64,000 nucleotides of DNA from assembly GCA_951406725.2 (NCBI GenBank), contig OX597834.1, positions 7,378,001-7,442,000 of the forward strand. The letters run 5' to 3'. Source of the DNA: Octopus vulgaris. Lineage: Eukaryota. Positions 140-63,835 of the stretch are shown here, piece after piece (positions within the stretch are counted from its first letter, which is position 1; the number at the start of each line of letters is the position of its first letter). The notes under the pieces were generated by a model. The model made no database searches. It had not been told where the DNA came from and saw only the letters and a list, made by a program, of their open reading frames with translations. The translations under genes were made by a program, and so were the position numbers.

Positions 140-315
140 TATATTTAATTTTTTTAAAATTTTCTCTCTCAGCTTATTTCTGTGTATCTTTCTGTCGAAG
201 AGCGTAGGCTCGAAACTTAAAAGACTTTTTCTATTCCTAAGCGTTACACTAATACATCTGTTTGTTTTGTACACCACCTCTCTTCGTCTTATGTCTTTTT
301 CGTAAACTCTCCCCT
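140..315 (+). mobile_element. Short HHR-like element (family H1, putative PLE pLTR derivative) between microsatellites
   Basis: Contains tcttt-CTGTCGAA-gagc gtag gctc-GAAA-ct-TA-aaaga (187-224); homologous to 3040-3240, 10050-10410 and 37890-38000. Confidence 0.6.
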
Positions 316-2749: not shown

Positions 2750-3430
2750 TTTTGTTTCTTTTACTTGTTTTAGTCATTTGATTGCGGTCATACTGGAGCA
2801 CCGCCGTGAAGCGTTTTCGTCGAACAAATCGGCCTCCAGAACTCACCTTTAAAGCTTACCACTTATTCTATCTGTTTCTTATGCTAAGCCCCTAAGTTAC
2901 GGGGACGTAAATACATCAACACCAGTTGTCAAGTGCTGAGGGAAGGACACACGCAGGCACATAGACATACCCACAGATATATAAATACATGCACACACAC
3001 ACAGACACACACAAACACACGCACAGTAAATTGAAATAAAACGTCAATTACAATAAACTAATAAGATTAACGAACAACAAGGGAACGTGCACAAGAAATG
3101 TATTAACATGACGCTCGGTGAAAAGAGAGAGTTTGACGTTTCGAGCCTACGCTCTTTAACAGAAAGGTCTGAGAGGAAAAGATGGATAGGGAACGGAAAG
3201 TATAGAAGAACAGAGAGAGAAAAGGAAAAATATGCAGGGATTTTATATATAATTATAAACACACACACGACGGTCTTCTTTAAGTTTCAGTCTGCCAAAT
3301 CCACTCACAAGGCTTTGGTCGACCAGAAGTTATAATATAGAACACTAGCCCAAAGTGTCACGATGTGGGACTGATTCCGGAAGCATGTGGCCGGGAAGGA
3401 AGCTTCTTACCACAGAGCCACGCCTGCGCC
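2750..3430 (-). mobile_element. Old SINE A copy interrupted by an H1 element (about 3040-3240)
   Basis: 3' part 2750-2940 and 5' part 3270-3430 match family A; HHR-like motif at 3131-3166. Confidence 0.75.
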
Positions 3431-6379: not shown

Positions 6380-7430
6380 GACCTTCAACGACCGGATAAA
6401 GTTCAAAACTTATTCTAATAATAGCAGAGCTTGAAGCAATCCAGCGCCATTACACTAAAAGGCTGAAACAGTGCGGCGGAGGAGTCACAGGGAGAGGCTG
6501 AAAAAACTATAAACTTACTCCCTGGAGCGAAGGCGCGACAGATATCCAATAATCATAATCTACATATGGAAAACTCTAGAAGGGCTTTACCTAATTTCGG
6601 CATTGAGTGTTAAACAAATGCTAGAACGCAGGAGTGGCTGTGTGGTAAGTAGCTTGTTTACCAACCACATGGTTCCGAGTTCAGTCCCACTGCGTGGCAC
6701 TTTGGGCAAGTGTCTTCTACTATAGCCTTGGGCCGACCAAAGCCTTGTGAGTGGATTTGGTAGACGGAAACTGAAAGAAGCCCGTCGTATATATGTTTAT
6801 ATATATATGCGTGTGTGTGTGTTTTTATGTCTGTGTTTGTCCCCCTAGCATTGTTTGACAACCGATGCTGGTGTGTTTACGTCCCCGTTACTTAGCGGTT
6901 CGGCAAAAGAGACCGATAGAATAAGTACTGGGCTTACAAAAGAATAAGTGCCGGGGTCGAGTTGCTCGATTGAAGGCGGTGCTCCAGCATGGCCGCAGTC
7001 AAATGACTGAAACACGTATAAGAGTAAAGAGTAACTGGCCCGTCATTGTATTGTACCAAAGGTACCATCCACTCCATCTAAATTCAGGTTCAAGTACTGC
7101 GATGGTGTAAGGTTTAAAGGCCCAACAGCTCTTCAATGTCCCGTTACAAAATTTTTTTAAATTGCATAAAGTGGAAGTAGATGTCTTCAAAAAGGGACTA
7201 GACAACGTCCTATCTACAATAACGGATGAACCAACAGCGTGACATAAGGAGCAGACGACTATAGCTGAATCAAACTCACCTATACACCAAATTGGCCGAC
7301 AGAGGGGACAAGGGCGCATACAGGTGTGGTAATGTGAACCACCCCAGACTAAGAACATTAGCAAGACAATGATAGTGCTCCAGCATGACCACAGCCGCAT
7401 GGTTGAAGCAAGTAGCAAAGTAAAAGAGTG
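6380..7430 (+). mobile_element. 3' remnant of a CR1/L2-group LINE, interrupted by SINE A
   Basis: Frameshifted peptides IAELEAIQRHYTK, YSLERRRDRY, IYIWKTLEG, FKKGLDNVLSTITDEP; 3' end gtgctccagcatgaccacagc...aagcaagta. Confidence 0.75.
6627..7033 (+). mobile_element. SINE A
   Basis: Near-identical to 684-1098. Confidence 0.9.
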
Positions 7431-10004: not shown

Positions 10005-10049
<45 letters not shown>

Positions 10050-10052
<3 letters not shown>

Positions 10053-10410
10053 AGAGTTCATGAAAAAACAAAAGACTGTAGAAAACAAATAGATGTATTA
10101 GTATAACTTTCAGGAATTGAAAACGTCTTTTACGTTTCGAGCCTACGCTCGTCTACAGTAAGGGACACAGAAAAAATAAGGAGAGAAAAAAATGTGTGTA
10201 GTGGCTACCGATCTATCATGGCGAGAATTTACAAAGAAAAAAAAACGAAACAAAACAAAAGACGAAGACAGTTGTGTAAAAAACACACAGATATATTAGT
10301 TTAACGCTCGGGAAGTGAGAAAGTCTTTTACGTTTCGAGCCTACGCTCTTTGACGGAAAGGAACAGAGAAATAAACAGGGAGAGAAAATATAAATCGTTT
10401 AGTGGCTAGA
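10050..10410 (-). mobile_element. Tandem dimer of H1 elements
   Basis: Two units 198 bp apart, each with cttttacgtttcgagcctacgctc. Confidence 0.7.
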
Positions 10411-37789: not shown

Positions 37790-38039
37790 GTAAAAAATTA
37801 TTACCTTTGTATGGTATTTATTCGCATGCTGGCCACTTGATAATACCGATATTTAAATATAGATATCATATATATATATATATATATAACGGGAAGGTTT
37901 ACGAAAATAAAAAAAAGACAAAGGCAGGTGGAGTACAAACAAACAAATGTATTAGTATGGCGCTCAGGAATAGAAATAAAACAAGTCTTTTACCTTTTAC
38001 ATACATACATACACACATACCCACATACATTCATACATG

Positions 38040-50165: not shown

Positions 50166-50561
50166 TAAGCGTGTGCATCTGTGTGTGTGTGTGTGCGCGC
50201 GCCTTTGCTTGTATATTGGATGATGTATATAGTTACATGCTGAAATGGTTAACTGCTCTAGTTGTCCTCTCCGTTAAAACGTATCAGTGGCATTGCTGTC
50301 TCAGACACACTTAATAAAGAAATAAGAAAATGCTTCCTACTATCTGTTCTTTTATTATCCGGCTTTTCGTATTCTGGAAAACACTTTTTTTTATTTCTTG
50401 CTTTCGGTTACTTTTGTCAGCAAGGTGTGTCTGAGACAGCAATGTCACTGATACGTTTTAACAGAGAGGACAACTAGAGCAGTTAACCATTTCAGCATGT
50501 TACTATATACAGCATCCAATATGCACAGGCGCGCGCACACACCCAGATGCACACGCGTATA

Positions 50562-63678: not shown

Positions 63679-63835
63679 ATGTTGCGAGTCAGTTGTTCGC
63701 ATTCATTTAAGTCACAAATATATAAACTCGTAGCCCCGACTACTGGATAAGTCTTTAAACGACTTATCCAGTAGTCGGGGCTATGAGTTTATATATTTGT
63801 GACTTAAATGAATGCGAACAACTGACTCGCAATAT
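63679..63835. repeat. Near-perfect hairpin with 72-75 bp arms and a 7-nt loop
   Basis: 63682-63753 is the reverse complement of 63761-63832 with one G/T pair. Confidence 0.95.

Follow-up and report, generated by a model that had tools for sequence, protein, structure and literature searches.

What hammerhead motifs do in Penelope-like elements (PLEs) is an open question, and it bears on a family of motifs of which several copies lie in the window, the stretch of 64,000 nucleotides at 7378001-7442000 of Octopus vulgaris contig OX597834.1 that was analysed as a whole. The motifs have the stems of a hammerhead ribozyme arranged around cores that depart from the canonical CUGANGA. The locus raises three questions: whether such cores are products of decay or an inherited variant, what kind of element carries them, and whether an RNA of this form would cut.

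Copies of the motif in the window

Four copies had been reported in an earlier note on this DNA, and all were recovered at their positions, each with an exact GAGC-GTAG-GCTC-GAAA. Copy 1 lies in the 5'-truncated 3' tail (the pseudo-LTR end) of a Penelope-like element at 157..314 (+), which ends at a (TA)n run and is closest to the N7=A subfamily (89–93% identity). Its motif (187..224, +; core CTGTCGAA) has five stem I pairs (187-191/220-224), the core C3-U4-G5-U6-C7-G8-A9 with an extra A at 192-199, stem II at 200-211, GAAA at 212-215 and a predicted cut between 219 and 220. Copy 2 belongs to an old, diverged tail fragment from the earliest rung of the family tree (3096..3195, −); its motif (3131-3167, −; core CTGTTAAA) shows G8A decay, a stem I reduced to three pairs and a predicted cut between 3135 and 3134. 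Copy 3 is in a tail fragment of the N7=A subfamily that ends at (TA)n (10045..10204, −), and its motif (10127-10163, −; core CTGTAGAC) has the extra base changed from A to C and a stem I of three pairs with the closing pair lost. Copy 4 is in a tail fragment of an N7=C subfamily (10217..10403, −), with a motif at 10325-10361 (−; core CCGTCAAA) that carries U4C and G8A (CpG) decay and four stem I pairs. The earlier note had listed the four cores as variants; U6 is indeed inherited, whereas the changes just described in copies 2, 3 and 4 are private decay. The ACGT palindrome is kept in three of the four copies, "mostly" as had been said, and is broken in copy 1 (ACTT). Copies 3 and 4 (10045-10403, −) stand head-to-tail yet come from different subfamilies, so one was inserted beside the other. 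Inverted or adjacent copies also occur at several of the fetched loci (L012, L048, L169).

A profile search added a fifth copy, overlooked earlier, at 37888..37997 (−). It consists of the downstream tail only, 5'-truncated inside the motif a few bases before the predicted cut, with core and stem II absent. A pattern search for stem II gave five matches in the window at three or fewer mismatches (four of them exact) against 0.15 expected by chance, and none of 100 shuffles reached five. The match at 6525-6540 (+) was rejected as a family member, as hammerhead and family flanks are missing; this look-alike sits in a different repeat, common to the window and L015:398. The 150 best-scoring of 228 Rfam matches in the window were microsatellite and hairpin noise, with none to a hammerhead model. 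Two long, near-perfect inverted repeats (50192-50539 and 63682-63830) surfaced as false miRNA matches and are probably MITE-like or inverted transposon ends. Elsewhere in the window, 583-608 (−) reads CTGAGGA...GAGCCAAACAGCTC-GAAA, a canonical core with GUH not directly after it.

The carrier element

By their sequence, the window motifs lie in broken-off 3' tails of a Penelope-like retrotransposon with a C-terminal GIY-YIG endonuclease and a Neptune-type linker. The window has tails only, and tblastn did not find a remnant of the element ORF in it. At locus L025 the endonuclease frame was found upstream of the motif, with a CX4CxxC linker, a CxxC inside the GIY-YIG and two later histidines. 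All 150 scored endonuclease candidates (17,497 first-look candidates) were 99–100% identical to it. Pfam searches at locus L088 gave RVT_1 at 31.6 bits, above the cut-off, and GIY-YIG at E 0.007, below the curated cut-off with the motif visible; a match to Herpes_glycop_H (E 0.15) was discarded as chance. In a set of 20 regions chosen because they held long frames or tandem matches, a long frame of 1,021–1,214 codons was present in 18, and twin motifs 4,449–4,573 bp apart, flanking the ORF, were present in 17. The element occurs as units of about 4.5 kb with a single ORF, reverse transcriptase followed by GIY-YIG, with the motif in both terminal repeats, a partial-tandem pseudo-LTR layout and (TA)n ends. 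U6 was found in 32/32 motifs near the youngest endonuclease copies (L051-L080) and in 38/38 motifs of L081-L100, two sets that overlap; the earlier note would have been refuted by youngest copies with a canonical core, and this is not what these copies have. The Neptune clade has been reported to possess a CX2-5CxxC linker before the GIY-YIG, a CCHH motif and microsatellite targets (PMC8557442). The present element fits Neptune by its linker and microsatellite targets; the linker is shared by Nematis. Young and high-copy, the element is apparently active. It is present in 20 of 24 sequencing runs, with no RNA run among the holders listed.

The family core and the change at position 6

The 17-mer of stem II plus GAAAC has 21,744 exact matches in the genome (2.8 Gb, microsatellite-rich), and its reversed control has none. 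In a sample of 92 copies picked by the stem II anchor only, the eight bases upstream of stem II are C (90), T (86), G (90), T (90), N7 (T 36, C 23, A 22, G 11), G (88), A (92) and A (91). The family core is C3-U4-G5-U6-N7-G8-A9 plus one extra A (CUGU-N-GA-A), that is, A6U, with U6 in 90/92 copies of this sample. Across the genome, 19,249 copies have T at position 6, 270 (1.3%) have A and 575 (2.9%) have C or G; by eye count, C accounts for 91 of the first 100 of these 575. The background at invariant flank T columns is A 1.6%, C 2.6% and G 1.4%, and the shares of A and C at position 6 are close to it, with G lower.

These counts uphold the earlier view of an inherited variant core over decay, on grounds other than those first given. 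The constant length of eight nucleotides had been offered as evidence, but the consensus of PLE minimal hammerheads is CUGANGAH, which normally has an extra base after A9 (PMC4209133). Nor is CUGANGA replaced as a whole, since the family core differs at position 6 alone: CUGUNGAA agrees with CUGANGAH in length and extra base and departs from it at that position. In place of A6 of the CUGA turn, U6 is found in all young copies examined, while C3, U4, G5, G8, A9, G12, A13, A14, A15.1 and U16.1 are fixed, N7 is free and H17 is not G (156 copies and tree counts). The other features of PLE minimal hammerheads are present, namely G10.1-C11.1 opening stem II, a short stem I and a palindrome at 15.1-16.1. 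Because a core of eight nucleotides is ordinary for PLE hammerheads, the family-wide A6U is, as judged from the letters, the only unusual feature of the motif. It is built as a PLE minimal hammerhead yet has U where A6 is expected, and catalytic activity is predicted only.

A search for U6 families with another stem II gave 790 matches against 98 in the control. Most of those listed proved to be point mutants of the family already described, and seven unrelated candidates were without hammerhead flanks. A natural A6U hammerhead was not found in the literature searched, nor in the sections covered of PMC11014351, PMC12192606 and PMC13725137; the survey of PLE variants by Lunse et al. (2017), which may contain U6 forms, lay outside that scope. 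The single literature match for A6U concerns twister, not the hammerhead.

Sister family and history

The same genome contains a sister family with canonical A6 (core CUGANGAA, stem GAGC/GCUC, mostly a 3-nt loop), to which most of the first 100 among 9,732 CTGANGAAG...CGAAAC matches belong and in which T6 occurs just 21 times. It is a natural control for A6U. The sister family agrees with the U6 family in stem II, the palindrome, the A-U pairs of stem I and the words GAGCG and TAATAC further downstream, and differs from it in A6, a variable loop and G-C rather than C-G at 2.4-1.4. This stem I pair is C-G in 114/151 U6-family copies and G-C or G-U in 26/28 sister copies. An attempt to tie the sister family to an ORF tied it to none. 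One tree cluster of the sister family (L019, L049, L143, L178, L187, L230, L236, L322) has the core CCGACGAA (U4C), and this subfamily is, from its clustering, a second inherited core change in the genome. Both families also conserve two words after the predicted cut (for example at window 240-255): GAGCG at 16–25 nt, which repeats the 5' strand of stem II and is able to compete for GCUC, and a branch-point-like word, ACTAATAC, at about 30 nt. Other canonical minimal hammerhead families, with stem II of the GGAC/GTCC type, occur at L159 (G000:C1:4515047) and among further matches.

A tree was built from 194 tails with positions 6, 7 and 17 masked; it rests on a short alignment, with weak support and one long-branch warning. 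Its subfamilies branch off one after another as a ladder, and U6 is present from the earliest rung up to the youngest; A6 copies are dispersed among the U6 copies. No A6 or C6 clade appeared on it (four C6 rows are four changes), and a canonical A6 subfamily inside the U6 family was rejected. In one old subfamily, the first 100 of 328 copies have T 84, C 10 and A 6 at position 6 by eye count, with C in excess over background (p=9e-5) and A borderline (p=0.045). The excess of C suggests relaxed constraint rather than a preference, and the hold on position 6 may have been loose at an early stage of the family. Endonuclease remnants beside older U6 copies are 71–88% identical to the young protein, decay included. 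U6 is taken as the derived state because the sister family and 56 published motifs all have A6.

Selection on the motif

Selection was assessed on 156 copies, from which A6-picked copies were excluded and short or truncated rows dropped, with the youngest group thinned to four. Columns with a second letter at 10% or more numbered 1/34 in the motif against 62/129 in the flanks, and 1/34 against 23/66 (p=1.6e-4) once low-complexity and gappy flank columns were removed. In the stem-II-chosen sample (88 copies), 0/34 motif columns were polymorphic against 31/77 flank columns. Outside the search anchor the count was 1/18 motif columns (p=3e-4), and stem II was also constant in copies located from their flanks (first 100 of 19,458). 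As motif columns are not independent, these p values are rough. The constancy of U6 alone is non-significant, with about half to two thirds of flank columns equally unchanged. The earlier note had counted on a conserved stem I, and the family does conserve it. All four columns of the GUAG loop are monomorphic in the U6 family, and the loop is variable in the sister family.

Two motif positions behave differently. N7 required 25 changes on the tree against a shuffled mean of 77, and H17 required 12 against 32; the H17 clusters are A, U or C, with G confined to two scattered rows. Variants at position 6 do not follow the tree (five changes against five in shuffles). C3 is fixed in 154/156 copies and U16.1 in 156/156. 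Since N7 and H17 track subfamilies while the other motif columns are fixed, the constancy of the motif outside N7 and H17 points to selection on the hammerhead fold.

Predicted folds, template and junctions

Folding of the monomer indicates that U6 lets U4-G5-U6 pair with A15.1-C15.2-G16.2. In a young copy the resulting closed hairpin is the minimum-energy fold (−10.8 against −8.4 kcal/mol for the open junction). For the G5-C15.2 pair, 90 natural U6 copies give median probabilities of 0.44–0.98 over the four N7 classes, against 0–0.10 for 21 natural A6 members of the family and 0–0.01 for eight sister copies. Stability relative to shuffles is modest (z −0.6 to −1.8). The palindrome is conserved except for CpG decay, and when two copies are cofolded the lowest-energy structure is a non-catalytic duplex.

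Each of the 17 twin elements runs on for about 100 nt beyond the predicted 3' cut before it ends, and a TA run lies 89–108 nt past the cut in about 64 of 92 sampled copies. Because full-length elements keep these 100 nt, the copied RNA would have been uncut or rejoined at the 3' motif. The internal continuation at the element end site starts TTATATA and resembles the (TA)n target. At L088:4211-4220 and in the other twin elements, the internal stretch immediately beyond the terminal repeat opens with TTATATATT, matching the (TA)n target, and this start is likely a priming microhomology for internal initiation of reverse transcription. For a run-off test, 97 5' junctions were drawn from truncated copies among the first 100 matches out of 399. 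They gave no clear pile-up at the predicted cut, where 16 fell against 15 at two TA microhomology sites and against nine at two A-runs (p=0.11), a contrast that reassigning ambiguous '-1' rows would raise. In L361-L456, 5' truncations are concentrated where TA or A microhomologies to the target microsatellite occur. Within a single insertion the two repeats are near-identical upstream of the motif (0.18 substitutions against 3.9 between elements, a figure that fixed windows may inflate), and downstream of the motif the comparison gave no contrast. Repeat identity within insertions does not separate a circular from a linear template.

Does the motif cut?

On a modest balance of probability, the motif is a hammerhead-type element in PLE terminal repeats, fixed for A6U, that likely cuts the element RNA after GUH, slowly, and only once its predicted closed fold has been opened by a second copy or by the element's own protein. 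The ACGU palindrome would form stem III between two such copies. Weak or delayed cutting would suit the element because an RNA that serves as the DNA template has to be either uncut or joined again at its 3' motif. A natural A6C hammerhead has been reported to be a weak cutter, with k < 0.1 per min in Mg and improved activity in Mn (PMC3088659, PMC7151607), and a PLE hammerhead has been reported to cut only with the element's protein present (PMC11167929). Other reports count against cutting. A pairwise mutational scan found single mutants of the CUGA turn to be all of low activity, with no rescue except by a C3-G8 swap; the value for A6U itself is not in the sections covered (PMC9901934). Hammerhead mutants left PLE insertion in vitro unimpaired, and the same study reported that RNA-seq ends at the cut site of its PLE were not found (PMC11167929).

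As the main alternative it is possible, if doubtful, that the motif does not cut at all, and that A6U has created a stable irregular hairpin kept for binding by the element's protein or as a 5' UTR signal for translation or splicing. The hairpin would consist of stem II, tandem G-A pairs, U4-G5-U6 paired with ACG, and stem I. It is the minimum-energy fold of the young copy, the GUAG loop is fixed in the U6 family and variable in its sister, insertion in vitro does without cutting (PMC11167929), and full-length elements retain about 100 nt past the cut site. C3 and U16.1, however, are unpaired in the hairpin and nonetheless fixed, no subfamily has G as its H17 even though such a G would pair with C3 and make the hairpin stronger, and N7 is free although U7 would add a pair. 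Slow, assisted cutting is favoured over a non-cutting structure because C3, U16.1 and the rule at H17 matter for catalysis and not for a hairpin.

A further, rather unlikely proposal is that A6U is a selected switch, in which the monomer would be locked by pairing between core and palindrome and would cut only on contact with the element's protein or in a dimer. The closed fold, a nearest-neighbour prediction, could be a mere inhibitory by-product. If the switch were real, a retrotransposon would have given up catalytic perfection for control over the timing of template cutting, and whole families of such motifs would escape searches based on CUGANGA.

An efficient monomer, with A6U compensated for example by a new contact from the fixed GUAG loop, is improbable: no second-site rescue in the CUGA turn was found in the pairwise scan (PMC9901934), even PLE minimal hammerheads with A6 are poor cutters in vitro (PMC4209133) and the monomer is predicted to be closed, though U6 and the GUAG loop do co-occur here, unlike in the sister family, and all four loop columns are monomorphic. 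Conservation at the level of DNA is similarly improbable. PLE terminal repeats do contain promoters (PMC6765202), and an internal promoter or factor site could leave the hammerhead shape as mere inheritance, but N7 and H17 are precisely the positions left free and the stem I pair is compensatory relative to the sister family, both of them rules of an RNA. Random decay of a canonical CUGANGA holds for the private changes in window copies 2–4 and can practically be dismissed for the family, being refuted at position 6, where U6 is near-universal (19,249 copies against 270 with A6), is present in all young copies examined and has just 21 counterparts in the reverse direction (T6) in the A6 sister family.

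Significance and comparison with known systems

Slow and assisted cutting by the A6U motif and a non-cutting role would have different consequences. If the U6 motif cuts, the natural hammerhead core is widened and rescue by protein or dimer is implied; if it does not, the fold is kept for another job. In either case, an apparently active element has passed through many successive subfamilies with a core change expected to cripple cutting, and has retained the remainder of the motif.

Cervera and De la Pena (2014) have described the minimal type I hammerheads of metazoan PLEs, and the nearest of those listed is the Neptune motif of Acropora digitifera (PMC4209133). The U6 family has in common with these hammerheads a place in both terminal repeats, the extra base after A9, G10.1-C11.1, stems of 4 bp, a palindromic ACGU replacing stem III, a U-rich 5' flank and thousands of solo truncated copies. 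It differs from them in U6, as all 56 motifs of Fig. S3 in that work have A6. The descriptor used there demanded the catalytic boxes, so the U6 family is undetectable by it, and descriptor searches with CUGANGA fixed miss families of about 20,000 copies. The A6C hammerhead of phage Bcep176 shares with the U6 family a natural change at position 6 with the remaining core kept (PMC3088659, PMC7151607). Its weak activity has been measured, while that of the U6 family is predicted only; in addition, the change is to C and not U, and it occurs at a single phage locus as a full monomeric ribozyme rather than in a family of about 20,000 copies. In the Poseidon element PAc of the anole, too, a minimal PLE hammerhead precedes the internal site at which reverse transcription begins, and the template spans the motif (PMC11167929). 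PAc differs in belonging to another PLE clade and in a hammerhead that overlaps the start of the ORF, and the covered part of that report describes no core change.
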